DNA of 40,620 nt from a virus. Lineage: Duplodnaviria; Heunggongvirae; Uroviricota; Caudoviricetes. Positions 2,800-39,345 of the stretch are shown one piece after another. The translations under genes and the position numbers were made by a program. The stretch is taken from IMG/VR virus record IMGVR_UViG_2563366828_000005. One strand, 5' to 3'. Below the pieces are notes generated by a model that did not search any database, was not told the origin of the DNA, and saw only the letters and a list, made by a program, of their open reading frames with translations. How positions within the stretch are numbered: position 1 is the stretch's first letter; every line of letters begins with the position of its first letter.

Positions 2800-3144
2800 T
2801 TATTTCACCTCTTGTTGTGACATTGTTGAAAAATGGATACCAGCTCGTTGCTGCCAGATGATCCAACCGAGAGTCATATCCCATGCCATGTATTCGTTAT
2901 CGCCGTTTTTTGCTCTCCGACGATCGACTGTTTTACCGAAACGCTTTTCCATAAATAATTCATAGGCTGCGCGTTCATCTGGCTCAACTTCCAGAGATGC
3001 CAGTGCAATCCGTGCCAGTTCTAAATCATTTTCAAGCTCAGCGCGAATCTCAGCGAATGCACTCTGTGTTAAGGCGAACTCAATGCTCTGCACTTTATTC
3101 CGTGCGCGCTCAAGCAGTGCATGGTAGTTAATTTCGGTTGTCAT
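2800..3144 (-). CDS. Hypothetical early-left protein (114 aa)
   Basis: ORF whose start overlaps the stop of the upstream PAPS-reductase-like gene (ATGA-style coupling); no family recognised. Confidence 0.5.
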   Translation of the reverse strand: MTTEINYHALLERARNKVQSIEFALTQSAFAEIRAELENDLELARIALASLEVEPDERAAYELFMEKRFGKTVDRRRAKNGDNEYMAWDMTLGWIIWQQRAGIHFSTMSQQEVK

Positions 3145-4019
3145 ACCCCTACCTCTTCGAATTCCAATTCCAATTGATCACCCCAGATTTCACATGACTC
3201 TGAACACGAGCCGGTATCGAATCGCCTGGCCTGTACCATCGCCTGATACAAATTTCTGTAGTCGCTGTTGGCAGACATTCTGGCAATTCCGTCAAGCGTC
3301 AGGTGACCACGGTACATAATGTCTTTACCTGTTCTGCGATGACCATCCCTGACGTGTTTGCCTGTAACCAGCTCATTAAAAACTCGCATCAGACCTGGTT
3401 CGTCTTTACATGCAAGCCCCAGCTTTTGCGTTGACTTTTTGATGCAGAAAACACAGTTCCCGAGATGCTCCGGGATTTGCAAATCAAAAGGTTGTTTTCG
3501 CCACCACCGGATAACATCCGACTTATCAAAATCTGACAGCTCGGCAAGATACCGGACGCCCGATTTCGGTTTCAGCCTACGGGGTTCGTCTGCACGAATA
3601 CCCAGCCATGTGATGTAATTACCTCGCCCGAAATGGTTATCGCAGTATTTCGTGAAAGGGATGAGTTTTAGCCTGTCAGTACAGAACGCGCCGCCGATGT
3701 ATGGCGTGCCGTACTTTTTAACCATGTCCATAAACGGTTTAAGCACCGGCATTCGTGTCTGAATATCCGTTGGCTCCCATTCTGTATAACCATTTGGCTG
3801 CCCAAGCTCAGGATTTATATCGACCTGTAACACAGTTAGTGGTATGTCCCAGAACTTCACAACCTCCCGGATAAAGCGGTATGTCAGCGGATGTTCGCAA
3901 CCGGTATCCATAAAGATGTAGCAGACGTTATTGCCAGCCTTTCTTTGTTCTTCCATCAGGTGAACAAGATATGCGGATGTTCTCCCGCCAGAAAAACTAA
4001 CTACATGAGTTATGCACAT
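3141..4019 (-). CDS. PAPS reductase-like / PP-loop ATP pyrophosphatase superfamily protein
   Basis: 292-aa ORF with N-terminal SFSGGRTS PP-loop-like motif and a C-terminal Cys cluster (CVFC, CSESC); family call by motif only. Confidence 0.7.
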   Translation of the reverse strand: MCITHVVSFSGGRTSAYLVHLMEEQRKAGNNVCYIFMDTGCEHPLTYRFIREVVKFWDIPLTVLQVDINPELGQPNGYTEWEPTDIQTRMPVLKPFMDMVKKYGTPYIGGAFCTDRLKLIPFTKYCDNHFGRGNYITWLGIRADEPRRLKPKSGVRYLAELSDFDKSDVIRWWRKQPFDLQIPEHLGNCVFCIKKSTQKLGLACKDEPGLMRVFNELVTGKHVRDGHRRTGKDIMYRGHLTLDGIARMSANSDYRNLYQAMVQARRFDTGSCSESCEIWGDQLELEFEEVGV

Positions 4020-4546
4020 TTGCGTAATTCCGATAACTCGTTGAAGCGTTCCATAAACATCCCGTAGGCATGGCCCGGTGCCAGTGGAATAACTTTGAAC
4101 ATCTCTGTTGCCGGGATACCTTCCAGTACTGGCCAGAAAGAGCCATCATCAAGCCCGAGATCGCGGCGTTCAGTTGCCAGCATGATGAGATCGGCATATT
4201 TCACGGGTGTACTCATAACTGGGGGTAACCCGTATTTCTCACGGATTACGGCGTCTATTTTTTCTTCCATCCGTTTATAGTCAGGAAGAAGGCGTTTCAG
4301 TGGCGCCGGGATGTCCTGGCAATACGCTTCTGTTGCATCATGCATTAACGCTTCAAAAGCAAATTCCTGCGGCACCAGTTGGCTGCAAAGCACCGCATGT
4401 TGGGCGACGCTGTAGAAATGTGAAAGATGTCCTGCAAAGCGACAGATATTTGAAAGGGAAACCGCGATATCGTTAATAACGATGTCGTCTTGATTTATCT
4501 TGTCATAATAAAAATGCTTCCCGGAAAAAGTTTTAATAAATGACAT
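4010..4546 (-). CDS. HD-domain phosphohydrolase (YfdR-like 5'-deoxynucleotidase family)
   Basis: 178 aa from MSFIKTF; H..HD metal-binding motif (SHFYSVAQHAV, LMHDATEAY); the upstream in-frame extension in the track is probably not translated. Confidence 0.7.
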   Translation of the reverse strand: MSFIKTFSGKHFYYDKINQDDIVINDIAVSLSNICRFAGHLSHFYSVAQHAVLCSQLVPQEFAFEALMHDATEAYCQDIPAPLKRLLPDYKRMEEKIDAVIREKYGLPPVMSTPVKYADLIMLATERRDLGLDDGSFWPVLEGIPATEMFKVIPLAPGHAYGMFMERFNELSELRKCA

Positions 4547-4673
4547 TTTGTTCTCCACGTATATGCGCTGCACCGCGCTGAATTCTGGTAAAAGGAAGTC
4601 CTCACCATCCGGCGATTATTGAGTTAATTACGTTTCCATAAATTCCCCCGCAGGGGCATTTGCAGTAATGAAA

Positions 4674-5498
4674 TCAGGCGGTGAAAGTACCAATAAAGGT
4701 TTCTACTTTGCTGTCTTTGAATTTCTCAACAAGCAGATCACGAAATTCGTTAGCCATTTCTTCCTGCACCGCTTCCAGCTGAATAATGCGCAGAACCAGT
4801 ACAGGACGATCGCCAGTGATAATGCTGAGGCGTAATTTAAATGGACGTTCTTTCAGGCCTTCAAACGGAACGCATTTAAATTCAAATGCCACTGGCATAA
4901 TGTCTTTGGTCTTCGCTTCGACAGACTCCATCAGGGAGCGTTTGCCGCTGAAGTCATTATCTTCAAAATCAGCGGTCTGGTTCGCTTCAATTGTGATTTT
5001 ACGGATAGCCGCCGCCGCTTTGGTTGCCTGAATGGCGTCACCATTAGCATCAAAGCCCACAAGGTAGTCGGCCCAGTCTTCAATCCATTCTGCCAGTGAT
5101 TTCTGGGAGTTACGCTCGCCATTAACAGACAACAGAGCAGAGAACGGTGCTGTCTTTTTCAGTTTGAGAGTGGCGGTGTTATCTGCGTGACCTGGTTCAT
5201 CAATAGTACCCAGGTTAAGCACACTGACGGCACGCATATTATCAGCATCGATAAAGCAGCGGGTGCCTTCATCTGCAAGATCTTTAGAATAACGGGTAAA
5301 GTCATCGATGCTGGCAGTGGAAAGCGCACCACGGAAACGGAAGCGATTTAAATTAAATTTTTCCAGATCATGAATGCGGAAATTCTCAGGCAATGCCACA
5401 GCATCGGCACCAATCTTACTGATAATTTCATTAACACCCTGAGCAGAAATAAGGGCATGGATTTGATTAATTGCGGTTGCGTCTAAGTTCTGAGACAT
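4674..5498 (-). CDS. DUF2303 (YfdQ-like) family phage protein
   Basis: 274-aa ORF; size and gene order (120-aa, 274-aa, 178-aa HD, PP-loop protein) resemble the yfdP-yfdT block of E. coli CPS-53 as recalled; not verified. Confidence 0.5.
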
Positions 5499-5563
5499 AA
5501 TAAGTCCTCACTATATAAAGATATTCAGTGATGAGATAAATAATCGGTTAATTAAGAACGATA

Positions 5564-5926
5564 TTAATGACCTGCTGCGCGGAGTTTTCCGTCAGGTTCA
5601 CCGGCAAGAGTCAGTAATTGTCCCTGGTCTTCCTGCAGAATAGTCAGGCGACCACCGCGATTGACATACATCGGCGTTTCGGTGGTGTCTTCTTCGGAAA
5701 TTTTCCCGCGGTTAGTCGGGCGAACATATGAGAGTTTGTGTTTGATTTTCACACGGTTCTCATCAAATGGTTCGATTTCCAGGTTGAGTGAGACCTTACC
5801 TTTGGTTTTCGTGTTCATCACACCGGAAGCGACTTCACTGAGAACTGCGCCGATTTTGGTTTCAAATACGCCGCCGTCCAGCTCCCCGATAAATGCCTGC
5901 ACATCAGTACTGCGTTCGCTAGCCAT
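5564..5926 (-). CDS. Hypothetical early-left protein (120 aa)
   Basis: Start chosen at ATG (MASERSTDVQ) preceded by GGAG about 9 nt upstream; the 226-aa ORF in the track extends into a GC-rich non-coding stretch and is probably too long. Confidence 0.5.
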   Translation of the reverse strand: MASERSTDVQAFIGELDGGVFETKIGAVLSEVASGVMNTKTKGKVSLNLEIEPFDENRVKIKHKLSYVRPTNRGKISEEDTTETPMYVNRGGRLTILQEDQGQLLTLAGEPDGKLRAAGH

Positions 5927-5949
5927 TTTGCTGCTCCTCATCATATCGA

Positions 5950-6390
5950 CCCTGCAAGGTCGGTTAGTTTCTCCACAAAACAGAGAAGAACACCTGCGGT
6001 GACTGCCGCCCGGATGGATTGGGTTATGAGCCCGTCGTCCGGTGATGCTCTTCTCTGTTTTGTAAAAAGGACGGTACCAGCCGGAAGCAAGGGTACAAAC
6101 TGGTACCGCCAGGACTACACACAGCATAAAGTTGTGGTGCCGGGTGCCTCCCGGTGCCTGGCGAAGGTTGCACACCAGGCGGGTGGGTATCCACAGAAGG
6201 TCGACTGTCAGCCTCAACCTTAACCCGCGTGCGCTGAGCCGCATTCACCACAACGCTAAGGATTCTCTCTGGTTGAAAATACTTAGCTGTTATGTGCCTG
6301 CTTTTAGCCACATCAGGCGAGGTGGACCTGGTTATTCCCCAACAACAAGGATTCGGTTAATCTGGTTATCCCCAACAACGCAAAAGGAAA
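5950..6390. other. GC-rich, highly structured non-coding stretch (candidate ncRNA or regulatory element)
   Basis: No convincing ORF; 15-bp perfect inverted repeat ACAAAACAGAGAAGA (5975-5990 / 6049-6063), GGTACCAG/CTGGTACC inverted repeat, tandem GGTTATyCCCCAACAAC motif (6340-6380). Confidence 0.3.
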
Positions 6391-6394
6391 AGAA

Positions 6395-6829
6395 ATGTCC
6401 GGTAATATCTATACGCTGTACAAATCCCACTGTGAAAATGTTGGAAAGTATCGGGGCATTGAAATCAGTGGGGTAGTGTCATCAGTCGAAATAAGCAAAG
6501 TTGAATCAAGGGCAACATTACTTACTCTTCTGGACCTTGTCTTAAATGAGCACCGGAAGAAATTCGGCACACCCTATAATCAGTTGAATGGGAAAAAGGC
6601 TCTGGTTCACCTTATTCTGATGAAGCATCACTGGATGCCAAAACAGATTAATGAGATGAAATTTGATGAACTTCTTCTTTCAATTCAGGATGAACTCACG
6701 CTTGATAAAATAAGTGTAACCGCCCAGAAATTTTTAGATTATCGAGACTGGAGATCACAAATTCATCACTTTGATGATTTTGACGAAAATGAATGGGATC
6801 CTAATTTGTCTGCACAATATCTAAAGTAA
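6395..6829 (+). CDS. Hypothetical 144-aa protein, AT-rich moron on the strand opposite the early-left operon
   Basis: Clean ORF with AAGGA about 10 nt upstream; AT-rich versus flanks; hairpin plus T-run terminator downstream on the same strand. Confidence 0.55.
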   Translation: MSGNIYTLYKSHCENVGKYRGIEISGVVSSVEISKVESRATLLTLLDLVLNEHRKKFGTPYNQLNGKKALVHLILMKHHWMPKQINEMKFDELLLSIQDELTLDKISVTAQKFLDYRDWRSQIHHFDDFDENEWDPNLSAQYLK

Positions 6830-7007
6830 CATCCTGTGATAAAACCGTGATTTCCTGATCCAGTTTTTTTAAGGAGTCTATTGTTTCCTGTCGATAAGAC
6901 AGCACTTCACGAAGCTGGTTTATAGCTGCCAGCTTCTTTGTCATCCACTCATAAATTTCCTCATCTGTGTAGCCAGGCGCGACGATTTTTGGTTCTGTTT
7001 TGTGCAT
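6801..7007 (-). CDS. Hypothetical 68-aa protein, first ORF downstream of the putative PL
   Basis: ATG (MHKTEPKIV) preceded by GAGGAGG at 6-nt spacing; 3' end overlaps the convergent 144-aa gene by 29 nt. Confidence 0.45.
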   Translation of the reverse strand: MHKTEPKIVAPGYTDEEIYEWMTKKLAAINQLREVLSYRQETIDSLKKLDQEITVLSQDVTLDIVQTN

Positions 7008-7064
7008 TTCACACCTCCTCAAGTTATCAGTTACTTGTTGATGGGGACCAGATTGTTAAAGAGC

Positions 7065-7090
7065 GAAGCGTCCTATAGGGCGCTTTTTTT
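7065..7090 (+). terminator. Intrinsic terminator, plus strand
   Basis: Stem AAGCGTCC / GGGCGCTT with TATA loop followed by TTTTTT. Confidence 0.45.
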
Positions 7091-7263
7091 GTTGCTAACG
7101 AATCATCCGGTCATTCATACGCCACCGGCGGCTACTTCGTGGGCGTCCTGCCTGTTCGTTTTTGACATTTACTGACCTCTTACGACACATGCACCGTGCA
7201 CCGTGTTGCAACCAGATTTTGTTGTAATCCTGTAGTTGGTCTGGAACAAAAGATAAAATTAAA

Positions 7264-7300
7264 TTGCGAGATATGCAAGTAATATTTGCGAAATATGCAA
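7264..7300. promoter_or_regulatory. Putative OL operators / PL region
   Basis: Two 15-bp sites TTGCGAGATATGCAA and TTGCGAAATATGCAA 7 bp apart; same TTGCG-type motif recurs in the cI-cro intergenic region. Confidence 0.45.
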
Positions 7301-7310
7301 AACGGTGGGT

Positions 7311-7334
7311 AATAAAAAGCCACCTTTCGGTGGC
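7311..7334 (-). terminator. Intrinsic terminator downstream of cI
   Basis: On the minus strand: stem GCCACC / GGTGGC followed by a U-rich tract, 20 nt past the cI stop. Confidence 0.5.
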
Positions 7335-7354
7335 CGATGGATGGGATATTGAGG

Positions 7355-8047
7355 TTAATTATGTCTCTTAAGGGTTTGCGACTGACTGATTAAGACCTTT
7401 CCAAAGACCATAAATCGGTGTTCGTTTTCGCTAGTAATTCCCCATTCACGGTAAATCTGGTTATCAGAAATCACCAGCAGTTTGTCAGGAATCATTTGAA
7501 GTCTTTTAACGTATATTTTGTCATCAAAACCAAAGACATATATACCATCACCATCAAACTGATTGATGCTGACATCAACGAAGATGAGATCTCCTGGCTC
7601 AATGGTTGGACACATACTGTCCCCACGAACGTTGATAACTTTGATGTGATTGGCTGGTCGTCCGCCGAACATTGATACAGCATTATCAGTTCTGTATTCG
7701 ATGGCATGAATCACATCAATGACATCACCGCCCTGGATAAGGCCATTTCCCGCACTGGCACTGATATCCAGCATTTCAATACGGAACACATCCTTCACCT
7801 GCGCAACATCCTCATTATTACTGTTTTTATATACAGTATTACTTTTGAGGGCAGAGGTAAAGAGATCAGCAATATCAACACCTAAGCTCTTGGCAATATT
7901 ACTCAGTGTTTGTTCGGTAAATTGTTTTTGCTTACCCGTTTCTAAGCGCGAGATGTTCGCCGCATCTACTCCTATTGCTTCAGCGAGATCGGCGATTTTC
8001 ATGTTCTTCGCTTGGCGAAGTTGTCTGACTCGGTTTCCTATGTTCAT
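7355..8047 (-). CDS. cI: CI-type prophage repressor (HTH_XRE N-terminal domain, S24 LexA-like peptidase C-terminal domain)
   Basis: 230-aa ORF; N-terminal HTH (QLRQAKNMKIADLAEAIGVDAANISRLETG), C-terminal GDSMCPTIEPGDLIFVD autocleavage-type motif; divergent from a cro-like gene. Confidence 0.85.
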   Translation of the reverse strand: MNIGNRVRQLRQAKNMKIADLAEAIGVDAANISRLETGKQKQFTEQTLSNIAKSLGVDIADLFTSALKSNTVYKNSNNEDVAQVKDVFRIEMLDISASAGNGLIQGGDVIDVIHAIEYRTDNAVSMFGGRPANHIKVINVRGDSMCPTIEPGDLIFVDVSINQFDGDGIYVFGFDDKIYVKRLQMIPDKLLVISDNQIYREWGITSENEHRFMVFGKVLISQSQTLKRHN

Positions 8048-8144
8048 GCGTTTATTACATTTCTTTATTGCGTGATAAGCAAATCAACTTGCGCAAAATA
8101 ATTGCGTGAAATAACATGCATAACGCGCAATATTTGGAGGGTAT
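8048..8144. promoter_or_regulatory. OR / PRM-PR divergent promoter-operator region
   Basis: 97-bp AT-rich intergenic region between divergent cI and cro-like genes with repeated TTGCG(T/C) motifs (e.g. TTGCGTGATAAGCAA at 8068-8082). Confidence 0.55.
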
Positions 8145-13258: not shown

Positions 13259-13275
13259 TTTTGTGGAGAAAGTTG

Positions 13276-13632
13276 ATGCGTGATATGTATGAAGTAATGG
13301 ATCGTTGGGGAGCTTGGGCTGCTTCAGACAATAGCGGAGTGGACTGGCAGCCGATAGCGGCTGGTTTCAAGGGACTTTTACCTCATGGCAAAAAGTCACG
13401 GATTCAGTGTGATGATGACGAAGGCATCATGATAGACAGTTGTGTGGCTCGGTTGAGAAGGTATAAACCAGAGGAATATGAGCTCATCATCGCCCACTTT
13501 GTTATCGGTATCTCATTACGCACTATTGCGAAGAAGAGAAAATGCTCTGATGGCACAATTAGGAAGGAACTGCAAACTGCAATGGGGTTTGTTGACGGCT
13601 GTTTAGCAATGTTAGCTTATAGTATGGCATAA
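13276..13632 (+). CDS. Q: Late-gene antiterminator Q (phage 21/82 type)
   Basis: 118 aa from MRDMYEVMDRWGAWAASDNSGVDWQPIAAGFKGL, recalled as phage-21-type Q; GGAG 8 nt upstream. Confidence 0.75.
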   Translation: MRDMYEVMDRWGAWAASDNSGVDWQPIAAGFKGLLPHGKKSRIQCDDDEGIMIDSCVARLRRYKPEEYELIIAHFVIGISLRTIAKKRKCSDGTIRKELQTAMGFVDGCLAMLAYSMA

Positions 13633-14102
13633 AAAATAAAATAGATTTACTGCCGATTTTTCAAAAAAGACTGGGAACTGTTTATATCCAACGTAAATAA
13701 GGCCTCCATAAAACATGGCTGATGCGAGATATTTAACAGTTCTCATCCTTTTTTTAGCTTTATCAATCAAACCTGTAATGCTACTCTTAATACTATCTGC
13801 ATTATCTTTGATTTCTTTATTTTCTTCAAACTTTAAATACTTATCGAAAGCGGACTCCACTCGAGAACGTAAGTTGTCGAATGTTTCATTGAATATCTCA
13901 ATAGAAATGTAATTGACTTTTTTTATCATCCAAAGTCCTGCGATAATCAATATTGCCTCGGTTGTTTCATTAGCCTTCACTAAGCCACCAGCAGCTATTA
14001 ATGCACCGGGAATAGTCAATGCTTTTGTCTGATTAGATGATATGAATGGTGATGCTGCCAACTTACTGATTTAGTGTATGATGGTGTTTTTGAGGTGCTC
14101 CA

Positions 14103-14378
14103 GTGGCTTCTGTTTCTATCAGCTGTCCCTCCTGTTCAGCTACTGACGGGGTGGTGCGTAACGGCAAAAGCACCGCCGGACATCAGCGCTATCTCTGCTC
14201 TCACTGCCGTAAAACATGGCAACTGCAGTTCACTTACACCGCTTCTCAACCCGGTACGCACCAGAAAATCATTGATATGGCCATGAATGGCGTTGGATGC
14301 CGGGCAACCGCCCGCATTATGGGCGTTGGCCTCAACACGATTTTCCGCCATTTAAAAAACTCAGGCCGCAGTCGGTAA
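14103..14378 (+). CDS. insA: IS1 InsA
   Basis: 91-aa ORF with zinc-finger motif CPSC...CSHC, matches IS1 InsA. Confidence 0.95.
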
Positions 14379-14800
14379 CCTCGCGCATACAGCCGGGCAG
14401 TGACGTCATCGTCTGCGCGGAAATGGACGAACAGTGGGGATACGTCGGGGCTAAATCGCGCCAGCGCTGGCTGTTTTACGCGTATGACAGGCTCCGGAAG
14501 ACGGTTGTTGCGCACGTATTCGGTGAACGCACTCTGGCCACACTGGAGCGTCTTCTAAGCCTGCTGTCGGCCTTTGAGGTCGTGGTATGGATGACGGATG
14601 GCTGGCCGCTGTATGAATCCCGCCTGAAGGGAAAGCTGCACGTAATCAGCAAGCGTTACACTCAGCGAATTGAGCGGCATAACCTGAATCTGAGACAACA
14701 TCTGGCAAGGCTGGGACGGAAGTCACTGTCGTTCTCAAAATCGGTGGAGCTGCATGACAAGGTCATCGGGCATTATCTGAACATAAAACACTATCAGTAA
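14297..14800 (+). CDS. insB: IS1 InsB (normally expressed as InsAB' fusion via -1 frameshift)
   Basis: 167-aa ORF matching IS1 InsB, overlapping insA in the -1 frame. Confidence 0.9.
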
Positions 14801-15604
14801 GTTGGAGTCATTACCATATGAATTCGTTAATTTTACTCGTGAACTCAAGATTTTTCTCATCGAGTTCGTTAAGAATTTTATTTACAGAAAACCTCTTTGT
14901 GTAAATCTCATATAGTTCATCATATTTTTTCCTGACGAGTTCAGTAGAGTTAAGCAAGTCAAAGAAATTGAACGTACCATTTGCTTTAAATACTTCGTTT
15001 ATGGCTGAGCGTATAACGAGCTTGCGCTCGCTTTTGTGTAAATCATTGATTTTTATTGTGTCGAGAAGCTCCTTTATAATTTCATATTTAAGAGACGAGT
15101 TCGATAAGCGATTAATCTCGCTATATTGTAAAAAATGCGTGAGTTCGACTGTATAACTTTTGTCTTCATTGGTGAAAAATAAGACAGAGCAGTCACTGTT
15201 ATGATGATCAGCAATTAATGAAAGGATATCTTTCCACATAAAGAAAATATGGATTTTTTCGATGCTTTCATTCTTAGAAGTAGGGAGTATTAACGGCGTT
15301 CCGATGATATAATTTTTCGGAAGAGCGTTTTGGGTGTTTACTCTAGACCAAAAAGACTCAACATTCTCATAAATTATAGCGTCATCCCAAGATGAAGCTT
15401 GGCGATCTAGCCAAATTTCATTATTTTCGATGCAGGTTGTTGCCTTTTTATAACCTATAGATTGTAACAGTCTAATTATTTCAGAACTATTTACAATAAC
15501 AATGCTTTCTTCAAGACTTATGACAGTGTAGTAGCCCTCAACTCTGCTTGAGGCTCCGTTAATAATCTGCGCTAATCTTGATAAGTCATCAGCAATTGTC
15601 ATTA

Positions 15605-16780
15605 TTAGCTGTCTCTATATCTTTTGAGTTCATCATAATTTGCCTGACTCAATTTTATCACAATTTCGCATTTGTTGTCAGTGAGAATTACAGGCTTATT
15701 TGACTTTTCGTCTCCAATAGCTCCACGCATTATTTTCAACTTAAAATTATTGTCGTTATCTGCCACTTCAATTGTAAGCGCGCTTTCAGCTGCTTTAGGA
15801 GTTGGTTCAAATTGAGGGTCAATCTGGAAACCATTAAGATTAACAAAATCGACAAACGTTCCCTTACATTTGTGTGAATCAGTCAGGCATGAGTCAATTA
15901 TTTTTGAAATATCCTCTATCTTAACGGACTTATTTCCGTGTTTATCTTTTGATTTTTTTTCCAGTAAGGATTTAACTTCGTTGTCAATAGTATCACGCAG
16001 TACACGACCGAGTGAGTTTTTACTAGCAAAAATATCTATAGCACTGAATAATTGCTGAATGCTTCTTTTATTGTCCGAATCATGTCGGCAACCTAATGAG
16101 TCTTTGAAAAAATCGCTTTTAGATTTACCTTGCAAGAAATGTACATATGAGTCACCCTTGTTTTCTGGATAACTGGCTTCGAATAAAGTTAAATCGAACA
16201 TCGCAGCCTGCCGTAAGGCATCGGTATTAATTGGATTTAATCTTGTTGGGGTCAACTTATCCGAATCAAAGTCATAGGCGCTTTGTTTATCAACCATTAC
16301 GATTAGAAGTTTCCCCAAATCCTCTGGTTCGGTAGACTTATAGTGGATGAAAACAACGCTCCCCCCCTGAAGTTGGGCAACTCTCGATTCGTTATTAGCA
16401 TTATGTTTAAGCTTCTCTATTATAGCTCTAGATAAATCAATGAATTCATTATTTTTATTAATGTATTTTTTTAGGATCGTAGGAATGGATGAAGGGTTGT
16501 GATCTGAGTCTAGGAAGTTATGAAATTTGTTTTTTCGGCTAAATTTTTTCTCAATTCTGGTTATGAATTCAGATGTGACTTCATTTTTTAGATCCCAAAC
16601 TTCACCTAATCGATAATCAAATGCTCTTGAATCATTTTTTTCAAGATTTGCTGTTACAGCACCAATAGGAAAGTACGATTGTTTGCCCAGCACTACAACA
16701 TGAGGCGTGGCACCGCATTTATCGCAAGCTACAGTTGGGTCGTCAAGAACATTGCCACATTCTAAACAAGTTATATCCAT
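15605..16780 (-). CDS. Hypothetical 391-aa protein with N-terminal zinc ribbon; first gene of the two-gene cassette
   Basis: AT-rich ORF; CLECG...CDKCG at residues 5-22; stop is 2 nt from the start of the downstream IS1-disrupted gene. Confidence 0.6.
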   Translation of the reverse strand: MDITCLECGNVLDDPTVACDKCGATPHVVVLGKQSYFPIGAVTANLEKNDSRAFDYRLGEVWDLKNEVTSEFITRIEKKFSRKNKFHNFLDSDHNPSSIPTILKKYINKNNEFIDLSRAIIEKLKHNANNESRVAQLQGGSVVFIHYKSTEPEDLGKLLIVMVDKQSAYDFDSDKLTPTRLNPINTDALRQAAMFDLTLFEASYPENKGDSYVHFLQGKSKSDFFKDSLGCRHDSDNKRSIQQLFSAIDIFASKNSLGRVLRDTIDNEVKSLLEKKSKDKHGNKSVKIEDISKIIDSCLTDSHKCKGTFVDFVNLNGFQIDPQFEPTPKAAESALTIEVADNDNNFKLKIMRGAIGDEKSNKPVILTDNKCEIVIKLSQANYDELKRYRDS

Positions 16781-37857: not shown

Positions 37858-39345
37858 TCACTGACAAATGTTTTTGTCAAAATCAACTACAATAATATCA
37901 TCATATGAGTATAAGTTATATTCATATGCTCTTTTAATCTTTGCGGTTGAGCAAAAGGTTTTTTCATTTAACACACTTGCAATGTTTGTATTCCCAGGGT
38001 GTTTAAAGTAAACTCCAACTCTATTCATATAAGGGAATGGCCAATCCCAATTATAGAAATACTCTGGGAAAAATCTAGATATTAACGGGTAATTATTTCG
38101 TGCGTTTACAAAAACATCATTGTCTTTCTTTTTACCATTAAAAATAAGTATCTGATTTGTTTTTCCGCTTAACTCGAAAGCATCATTTTTAATCTGATGA
38201 AACAGAACTGTGGTTATGTTTTTTTCTTCTGTCATTGCATTTGTGTATGAACATAAAAAACCAAAAACATAAATCAGAGGAATTACAAGTATATATGTTA
38301 TTGGATTTTTTGTTTCTCGCGAGAAAAGATAAACAATCATGAATAAGAACAACATCGTAGCAGAAAAACCGATCATCACTCTTGGGGCGTCGATGTGATG
38401 CTGAAGTGGTAATAGAGTAGCAAAAGACAATATCAAAGCTGTTACTGGTGATGTTATTGTAATTAAAAAATTAATAATACCAGTAATACTTTTATTAGGT
38501 ATTGATTTCTTTAGCGCGATGAATGTCGTCATTGCAATGAAAAATAAAAATATTACTATAAACGCAACTCGTCCTGATTCCCCAAAAATACCACTAGATA
38601 TTGAATGAAGATAAAATTTTAAGTTTTCATATATAACTGAAAAAATGCCTTCAGTTTTAATTGATGGGTGATCCGGGTCCCCAACAACAGTTAAAAATAA
38701 AGGAATAACCACCAAAAAATATAATGCAACACCTATAACTAATGATACCGTCTTTTCTATGAGGTAAGTTAATAGATGTCTGTTACTATCTGAGTTAAAG
38801 TACATGTAAACATATTTACACAGAATAATAACCAGCATGAAATTTAATGATGCTTGGTATATAGACAATATAAATAATGTTAACAGGGCGGCAAAAGAAA
38901 TATTTAAAATTGTCTTTTTGAAATTAAATATTACAACTGAGAATGACAATGCAATACTTATGAACATCGGTAAAACATCAAAGCGATACATTGCATTTTC
39001 AATTAAAAATGGGCTTGATAAAATACCAAGAGGAACCAACAGTCCAATAAATTTATTATCTGTCGATATAAACATCCTGCTAAAAAAATACAGGCAAACA
39101 GATATCAAAAATACTGATAATATTGCAGGAAATGGGAATAAGTCCGTTATGTGCATGTTGAAATTCAATGCAATCATCAACATTTCAGCCAAAGGTCTAC
39201 CATCCCTAGCCCATCCAGTATACCCCCATATAGCTCTTCCCTGATCATCTACATAATGAATATTTGCCATGATGATGGGGGTGAAATATATAAAAACAGA
39301 TATCAAGAACCAATGGAAAGGTGTTTTGTTTTTATTTGCAATCAT
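37858..39345 (-). CDS. gtrC: Serotype-specific O-antigen glucosyltransferase (GtrC-type polytopic membrane protein)
   Basis: 495-aa AT-rich ORF with many hydrophobic segments, third gene after gtrA and gtrB. Confidence 0.6.

Follow-up and report, generated by a model that had tools for sequence, protein, structure and literature searches.

A 40,620-nucleotide stretch of viral DNA (Caudoviricetes; IMG/VR record IMGVR_UViG_2563366828_000005), hereafter called the window, was analyzed with respect to a small AT-rich gene, designated gene A, that lies antisense to the early-left (PL) operon of a lambdoid prophage. Gene A is probably a moron in the accepted sense, and it comes from a catalogued, uncharacterised protein family. 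Classical morons such as bor of phage lambda (the Juhala/Hendrix definition) are single genes with their own promoter and terminator and a deviant base composition, which are located between backbone genes, antisense to the lytic operon, and are expressed in the prophage. The analysis additionally suggests that gene A is a lysogen-expressed prophage accessory gene that occupies a dedicated antisense frame and is coupled to a partner on the lytic strand, gene B; this reading as a whole is given slightly less than an even chance. The features of the region are as follows.

6326-7096: variable cassette between conserved prophage flanks, delimited by blastn against phages SfV and SfII
6326-6394, plus strand: leader of gene A ("type A"), with an imperfect direct repeat, CTGGTTATTCCCCAACAAC at 6328-6346 and CTGGTTATCCCCAACAAC at 6362-6379
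6335-6363, plus strand: candidate weak sigma-70 promoter, -35 TTCCCC at 6335-6340, spacer of 17 nt, -10 TAATCT at 6358-6363
6385-6388, plus strand: ribosome-binding site AGGA of gene A, 6 nt before the ATG
6395-6829, plus strand: gene A, ATG start, 144-aa protein of the ECs1072 family (NF033230, phrog_5286)
6801-7007, minus strand: gene B, 68-aa acidic YdfC-like small protein (phrog_1744), ribosome-binding site GAGGAGG at 7014-7020
6911-6936, plus strand: second hairpin, inside gene B and antisense to it, followed by UUUGU (-15.6 kcal/mol, z = -3.35)
7048-7093, plus strand: conserved terminator block, CCAGATTGTTAAAGAGCG followed by a 9-bp hairpin at 7065-7086 and a run of seven T at 7084-7090

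It is nearly certain that gene A is a real autonomous gene. According to the hidden Markov model (HMM) search, its product matches the NCBIfam model NF033230 over the full length (residues 4-144) with 156.2 bits against a curated cutoff of 70 (E = 5e-46), and it matches phrog_5286 with E = 4e-90, as do all 52 of the 52 aligned relatives. The RefSeq protein WP_000016392.1 is identical to it and is annotated as "ECs1072 family phage-associated protein", a "hypothetical equivalog" without a function. The original prediction, made from the sequence alone, had found no family to name for this protein; the family is NF033230/phrog_5286. The HMM match, together with dN/dS values (ratios of nonsynonymous to synonymous substitution rates) of 0.25 relative to a 72%-identical homolog and 0.05 relative to phage SfIV, shows that gene A is coding and under purifying selection. 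An exhaustive HMM search for the family yielded 73 cluster representatives, all of them single-domain proteins, the full-length ones having approximately 145–155 aa; its named members are found in Escherichia, Salmonella, Citrobacter, Enterobacter, Klebsiella, Pantoea, Erwinia and Pseudomonas. A literature search on ECs1072, WP_000016392, ECs_5703 and STMMW_20121 found no functional study.

The GC content of gene A is 37.9%, compared with 46.9% and 44.1% in the 2-kb flanks, 39.9% in the cassette and 50.3% in the window; another measurement of the left flank gave 47.6%. The deviant composition characteristic of morons extends to the family, with the GC content of the A gene lying below that of both flanks in 14 of 15 loci. 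Several elements of the original prediction were borne out: gene A is on the plus strand and all genes of the early-left operon are on the minus strand, it has the ribosome-binding site AGGA, it is more AT-rich than its surroundings, and it forms a self-contained unit beside the immunity region, with a terminator of its own.

Homology to SfV and SfII ends at position 6325 and restarts at 7097, so that the sequence between these points is an exchangeable cassette. At least 80% of it was found in 408 of 5426 complete E. coli genomes (~7.5%), and about 640 further genomes match only its two ends, around other cargo. As expected for a moron, the cassette is replaced by other cargo in SfV, SfII, PhiR29_1, mEp460, 720R4 and the loci L028, L029 and L030 (L numbers denote compared loci). 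The location had been proposed earlier as a hotspot; as an exchange hotspot it is confirmed by the different cargo between the same flanks in SfV, SfII, PhiR29_1, mEp460 and other E. coli prophages. PADLOC analysis of the alternative cargo gave no convincing matches, and a "defence hotspot" in this slot was not demonstrated.

The two ends of the cassette recur as a frame consisting of a shared leader, CCTGGTTATTCCCCAACAACAAGGATTCGGyTAATCTGGAT, and a shared terminator block, CCAGATTGTTAAAGAGCkAAGCGTCCTrTAGGGCGCTTTTTT. The same leader precedes unrelated plus-strand genes in L029 and L030, and the block is located 12–25 nt after the stop codon of unrelated cargo in L029, L030 and L024. The unrelated plus-strand cargo in the frame comprises a 170-aa weakly LprI-like protein that carries a signal peptide, a 171-aa coiled-coil protein with a Zn-ribbon and a 159-aa protein with two transmembrane segments. 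In addition, a diverged leader and terminator flank a 39%-identical homolog of gene A in a Salmonella Gifsy-like prophage (L010), where 65 nt separate the stop codon of the homolog from the terminator, the terminator loop is AGAA instead of TATA, and no B gene is present. Across prophages, the loop of the terminator varies (TATA, TGTA, AGAA) and the stem is retained. Since the block follows both unrelated plus-strand genes and the L010 homolog, the terminator serves plus-strand cargo. Judging from these sequence comparisons, the leader and the terminator together make up an "expression frame" of the backbone that accommodates genes antisense to PL.

A second type of leader, CCACwTCAGGC..GGTGGTATCTTGG...CCAAGAAGG, with an extended -10-like element TGGTATCTT and a hairpin beside the ribosome-binding site, was observed in the same slot. 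The plus-strand cargo behind it includes A homologs (L007, L015) as well as unrelated genes (SfII_36 and a 96-aa gene in L010), and it is located at ~2965 onward in L002 (SfV), at 2908-3099 in L003 (SfII), in L007, in L015 and at 5600-5680 in L010. The leader of SfV, GGTGGTATCCTTT, is related to this type and stands before an unannotated plus-strand open reading frame (ORF). In the window, the cassette junction at 6325 truncates the second leader type.

A standard sigma-70 scan found no consensus promoter on the plus strand at gene A, and the promoter at 6335-6363 is inferred from the weaker hexamers given above, with a predicted transcription start near 6370. A looser position-weight scan revealed a -10-like hexamer 34–44 nt before the ATG in 10 of 12 A-family loci. 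The candidate hexamers are retained in Salmonella L010 despite a diverged spacer, and the Sakai copy has TATAAT. Control of gene A by the cI-like repressor was considered and rejected, since no operator-like site is present near the leader of gene A.

The hairpin at 7065-7086 has a folding energy of -14 kcal/mol on the plus strand. Taken alone, it is just modestly better than shuffled sequence (z = -2.06); it is no chance hairpin, because the same block recurs directly behind other plus-strand genes in other prophages. On the minus strand the hairpin is weaker (-7.2 kcal/mol) and lacks a U-tail, which indicates that the terminator at 7065-7090 stops rightward transcription only. Gene A thereby has the terminator of its own that is expected of a moron, in a block conserved behind other cargo. 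The terminator assigned to the gene by the original prediction is real as a plus-strand hairpin with seven T; it lies 236 nt past the stop codon of gene A, and this interval holds gene B on the opposite strand, which had been missed. The hairpin at 6911-6936, retained in L009 and L016, is a possible proximal stop for the A transcript.

Members of the A family are antisense to the surrounding lytic operon as a single gene in 13 of 15 independent contexts, which represent four slots:

PL operon beside the repressor: the window, L007, L008, L009/L016, L010-12 and L015
PR operon between cro/cII and O: Sakai Sp4 (ECs_5703, the namesake of the family) and Klebsiella L019/L020
Early Cox operon of a P2-like Pantoea prophage: L021/L022
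Between Q and holin: ST64B, Klebsiella phage KPP5665-2, L017/L018 and L033/L034

This pattern does not hold for short IS21-flanked contigs or for a copy that has ordinary chromosomal genes around it. In the GenBank records of ST64B (L005 3281-3715) and KPP5665-2 (L006 3321-3794), the A-family genes are unannotated and opposite-strand genes are listed instead. In Salmonella L010, a 96-aa protein is encoded in tandem after the A homolog (5678-5968, plus strand); it shares just positions 61-110 of the family profile (E = 2e-7) and looks like a short A paralog.

The head-on placement, always at most ~1 kb downstream of a lytic promoter (PL, PR, Pe or PR'), would also be expected if the unit were a device of lysis–lysogeny control, in which convergent transcription and a long A 3' untranslated region (UTR) antisense to B would damp leaky promoter-proximal lytic transcription and the A protein may antagonise B, stabilising lysogeny. 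Comparable control is exerted by lambda oop and PaQ and by the face-to-face promoters of P2 and 186; the position of oop between cII and O is held by A in Sakai Sp4 and Klebsiella L019, and in the window all of B would be covered by the A transcript. However, the terminator directly follows the A stop codon in L008, L010, L015 and L017, leaving no antisense target, unrelated cargo is found in the same frame, and A is also found outside prophages. Moreover, the A protein is conserved down to 20–25% identity with invariant residues, which shows that the protein itself is under selection. A control device of this kind is decidedly improbable.

Expression in lysogens was assessed from published data on relatives. 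The A-family member of ST64B (L005 3281-3715) corresponds to STMMW_20121 of S. Typhimurium D23580, a gene of 435 nt with a 71-nt overlap with sb50/STMMW_20131 and an adjacent holin gene. STMMW_20121 belongs to the same family as gene A (144 aa, HMM E = 5e-43, 29–32% identity), is likewise antisense to lytic genes and likewise converges on and overlaps a B-like gene, sb50; in contrast to gene A, it occupies the Q-holin slot instead of the PL operon, and no family was assigned to it by its authors. It has its own promoter and is transcribed, antisense to lytic genes, in almost all conditions tested (Owen et al. 2020, PMC7067206), with 60–270 transcripts per million (TPM) in 16 of 17 conditions versus 0.3–40 for the adjacent holin gene, and it was flagged by these authors as a candidate accessory gene (PMC7067206). 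In addition, ECs1072 is detectable on a Sakai array, with a 2.1-fold change at a growth transition (PMC2241611). Expression in lysogens, as proposed originally, is thus supported for the family through ST64B, where the gene has its own promoter, and for the window copy it is approached through these relatives. It is likely that gene A is expressed in lysogens.

The array result would also fit another explanation, that A is a lysogenic-conversion gene that alters host physiology or virulence via a host factor, B being merely a neighbouring early gene. The family is common in pathogenic Enterobacterales, the cargo of the frame is heterogeneous (secreted LprI-like, two-transmembrane and Zn-ribbon coiled-coil proteins), and one A copy is found alone among ordinary chromosomal genes: in L035/L036, the A-family protein P0026 (145 aa, 4001-4438) is flanked by PhoX, DUF1275 and MFS-transporter genes, phage genes are absent within 4 kb, and this copy may be domesticated. 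However, the A protein has no signal peptide, no DNA-binding signature (isoelectric point of 6.4, acidic helices) and no known effector domain, and a host-directed role does not account for the convergence of homologous B genes on A across four operon slots that are unrelated. This explanation appears unlikely.

Gene B is the first gene after PL and converges on gene A with a 29-nt 3' overlap. The closest known counterpart of its product is YdfC of the E. coli K-12 Qin prophage. The product is 39–41% identical to proteins of phage genes annotated as ydfC, and B shares with these genes a location in the repressor-controlled early-left (dicB-type) operon; unlike B, the ydfC genes of phages PPompW and Evi have no A gene converging on them. 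A phmmer search from B, followed by profile searches, identified B homologs at the ORFs that converge on or overlap the 3' end of A in L007, L009/L016, the Pantoea P2-like prophage, Sakai Sp4 (an unannotated ORF), Klebsiella L019, ST64B (sb50) and Klebsiella phage GP45. The B family has the motif P-h-h-x-x-G-[YLM]-[TS]-x-x-[EQ]-[IL]-x-[ED]-W-[LM], followed by a coiled coil. Comparison of the B set from the PL and P2 slots with that from the PR and Q-holin slots in hhalign gave a probability of 92.7% (E = 4e-7), and the combined B profile picked the convergent ORF in the later-fetched loci L033 (E = 2.6e-9) and L034 (E = 1.2e-5). In total, A and B occur together in 9 of 15 contexts, across the four operon slots. 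A functional coupling of A to B is considered evenly balanced between true and false. In the PR slot, the putative B-like ORFs are long (~150–170 aa), unannotated and overlap A by ~270–320 nt (14168-14677, plus strand, in L023, Sakai Sp4; 5206-5682, minus strand, in L019); they may be full ORFs or have just N-terminal B-like parts.

Two small genes that are physically coupled and inherited together might also be a toxin–antitoxin-like addiction pair stabilising the prophage. The co-divergence in L007, where A and B are each 39% identical to those of the window, and the high TPM values of both ST64B homologs in lysogens are in line with this. However, the genes are convergent and form no co-directional operon, solitary A genes are found in 6 contexts and solitary B genes in 19 phage records, no match to a toxin or antitoxin family was found, and the Rx4-6H motif of HEPN proteins is not conserved. 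The A/B pair therefore lacks the co-directionality, obligate linkage and recognisable domain of type II toxin–antitoxin systems, and an addiction pair is a highly improbable explanation.

As for the A protein, it has a mass of 17 kDa, an isoelectric point of 6.4 and a grand average of hydropathy (GRAVY) of -0.47, with no transmembrane segment and no signal peptide. The AlphaFold model, built from a 52-sequence alignment obtained in the representative search, has a mean pLDDT score (the value predicted for the local distance difference test) of 93.8 (an alignment of 4 sequences gave 45) and shows two long helices and, after them, a small domain made of helices; the model is all-alpha, and the protein is predicted to be cytoplasmic. 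The most conserved residues are R54 (51/52), H72 (51/52), W134 (52/52), G66 and A69. Searches of Pfam, PADLOC and PDB sequences were empty for all family members. The HMM and structure-based searches that had been proposed as a check on the original prediction thus gave a family in the first case and, among solved and viral structures, no match to the model in the second.

Two assignments for the A protein were rejected. Several HEPN chains, the RNase fold found in Tha, MNT-HEPN and Abi proteins, were among the weak noise matches; the assignment was discarded because the R-x4-H motif is present in just 10 of 52 members. A DNA-binding regulator was discarded on account of the isoelectric point of 6.4, the acidic candidate "recognition" helix and the lack of helix-turn-helix (HTH) matches.

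The following model is proposed. In the repressed prophage, A would be transcribed rightward from the weak leader promoter (-10 at 6358-6363) and translated from the AGGA ribosome-binding site. The transcript would run antisense through B (7007-6801) to the terminator at 7065-7090, ending before OL/PL and cI; because this terminator is one-directional, it would leave PL unblocked. Upon induction, PL transcription would pass head-on through A and B would be produced. Since PL transcription crosses A head-on and makes B, expression of A and B would be mutually exclusive. The A protein would presumably act on a protein partner; it may protect the lysogen from incoming phages, with B as a lytic-phase antagonist that spares the prophage's own induction, by analogy with Tha/Ith.

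In S. aureus prophages, Tha/Ith shows that a defence gene expressed in the lysogen can work together with a small antisense inhibitor whose gene overlaps it (Rostol et al. 2024, PMC11087260). The A/B architecture resembles this arrangement of defence and antidote in having a putative effector whose gene is overlapped by a small one on the other strand; the 3' overlap measures 29 nt in the window, and overlap or close convergence is seen in 9 contexts. In addition, the immunity regions of Gifsy prophages hold the defence genes gipd474 and remAIN (PMC12724215). On this analogy, an anti-phage role of A is put forward tentatively. The wider proposal is rather doubtful: A and B would be a previously unrecognised two-gene module of Enterobacterales, composed of an anti-phage or anti-prophage effector whose fold has no known relative and its antidote, a Gram-negative counterpart of Tha/Ith whose two genes would travel jointly among the PL, PR, P2-early and Q-holin slots.

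A number of observations weigh against the proposed model. PADLOC 2.0 gave no match for A, B or any of the 52 family members, the DefensePredictor supplements make no mention of the A family, and no fold relative was found with the A model. The expression evidence comes from relatives, and the promoter of the window copy is weak by consensus. In 6 contexts, which include one non-phage site on the chromosome, A lacks B; in L008, L010, L015 and L017, it stands alone with the terminator right after its stop codon. YdfC-like genes without A are present in 19 phage records; since both solitary arrangements exist, the link between A and B is not obligate. The ST64B homolog of B, STMMW_20131, also has a TPM above 100 in lysogens (PMC7067206), which contradicts a lytic-only B unless reads from the 3' UTR of A were counted for the B homolog. 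Furthermore, the other cargo of the frame includes the secreted, weakly LprI-like protein, so that the slot is not defence-specific. With these points taken into account, a lysogen-protective effector with a lytic-phase antagonist is ranked first among the explanations.

Gene A differs from classical morons in that its promoter-leader and terminator are a reusable frame shared with unrelated cargo and in that a convergent partner travels along with it. In phage lambda, the rexAB genes, of which rexB encodes a membrane protein, are found between OL and cI and share a transcript with cI; sieB of lambda and P22 is sense to PL. Like gene A, rexAB and sieB are located in or beside the immunity and early-left region; they are expressed in the prophage, as gene A probably is. 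In contrast to them, gene A is unrelated in sequence, encodes a cytoplasmic protein, is antisense to PL and has its own terminator. The comparison with the lambda rexAB/sieB position made in the original prediction is correct as to the location beside the immunity region, in the early-left operon, and loose as to orientation and sequence. Other properties of RexAB/SieB-type exclusion genes are also missing from gene A, which has no Pfam match, encodes no transmembrane segment and lies on the strand opposite to cI.

The window represents an SfIV/SfV-like lambdoid E. coli prophage. The region 5900-7360 is 100% identical to many E. coli chromosomes and 97–98% identical to phages SfIV, Kati and others. 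The neighbouring features of the early-left and immunity regions are given below.

2800-5911, minus strand: early-left leftward genes (yfdR, yfdQ, yfdP-like and others)
3141-4019, minus strand: PAPS-reductase-family protein of the early-left operon (PADLOC SspD model, E = 1.2e-14)
6062-6284, minus strand: STnc100/PasD-like prophage small RNA (Rfam RF02076, 43.1 bits at a gathering cutoff of 47, E = 1.3e-7)
7264-7300: OL operators, two copies of TTGCGArATATGCAA; PL fires leftward
7355-8047, minus strand: cI-like repressor with HTH and Peptidase_S24 domains, own terminator at 7318-7335 (minus strand)
8068-8130: OR sites, related to the OL operators

Gene A is located 0.5 kb from the cI-like repressor gene, on the strand opposite to both cI and the leftward operon; cro, the cII-like gene and the replication genes are directed rightward. 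The small RNA, which has its own terminator hairpin at ~6062-6110, is the left border of the gene A slot. Its region is annotated as a frameshifted pseudogene by PGAP, and in the SfIV annotation a 226-aa ORF extends across it. PasD and STnc100 have been linked in a recent preprint (bioRxiv 10.64898/2026.05.13.724894). The PL leader at 7097-7170 (CGAATCATCC...GGCGGCTACTTCGTGGGCGTCCTGCCTGTTCGTTTTTGAC) is kept in SfV, SfII, Salmonella L010 and other prophages regardless of cargo and immunity type, and within the early-left transcript it may act as an RNA element or a regulatory one. The protein encoded at 3141-4019 may be a lone SspD/DndC-like enzyme instead of part of a defence system.

Elsewhere in the window, a second antisense island (13612-16780) was observed between the gene of the Q antiterminator (13261-13632, plus strand) and large plus-strand ORFs (17402 onward), and O-antigen modification genes are located at the right end (37858-40620, minus strand):

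13612-14061, minus strand: very AT-rich 149-aa ORF, GC fraction 0.32–0.36, no Pfam or PADLOC match
14297-14800, plus strand: IS1 transposase
14811-15602, minus strand: 263-aa ORF
15605-16780, minus strand: NA37-like nucleoid-associated protein, 391 aa
37858-39345, minus strand: GtrII-type glucosyltransferase
39332-40261, minus strand: GtrB-like family-2 glycosyltransferase
40258 to the window end, minus strand: further ORF

Three testable regularities emerge from the analysis, namely, a reusable frame of leader and terminator for antisense cargo next to the immunity region, head-on placement downstream of lytic promoters and a conserved convergent partner. The literature searches found no paper that reports the reusable frame, the head-on rule or the convergent partner. 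If A is a defence gene and B its antidote, the pair would be a compact system with a previously unseen fold, and the principle of autoimmunity avoided by antisense overlap would be extended from staphylococcal to enterobacterial phages. Otherwise, the frame would still be a useful marker of lysogen-expressed cargo in lambdoid prophages.

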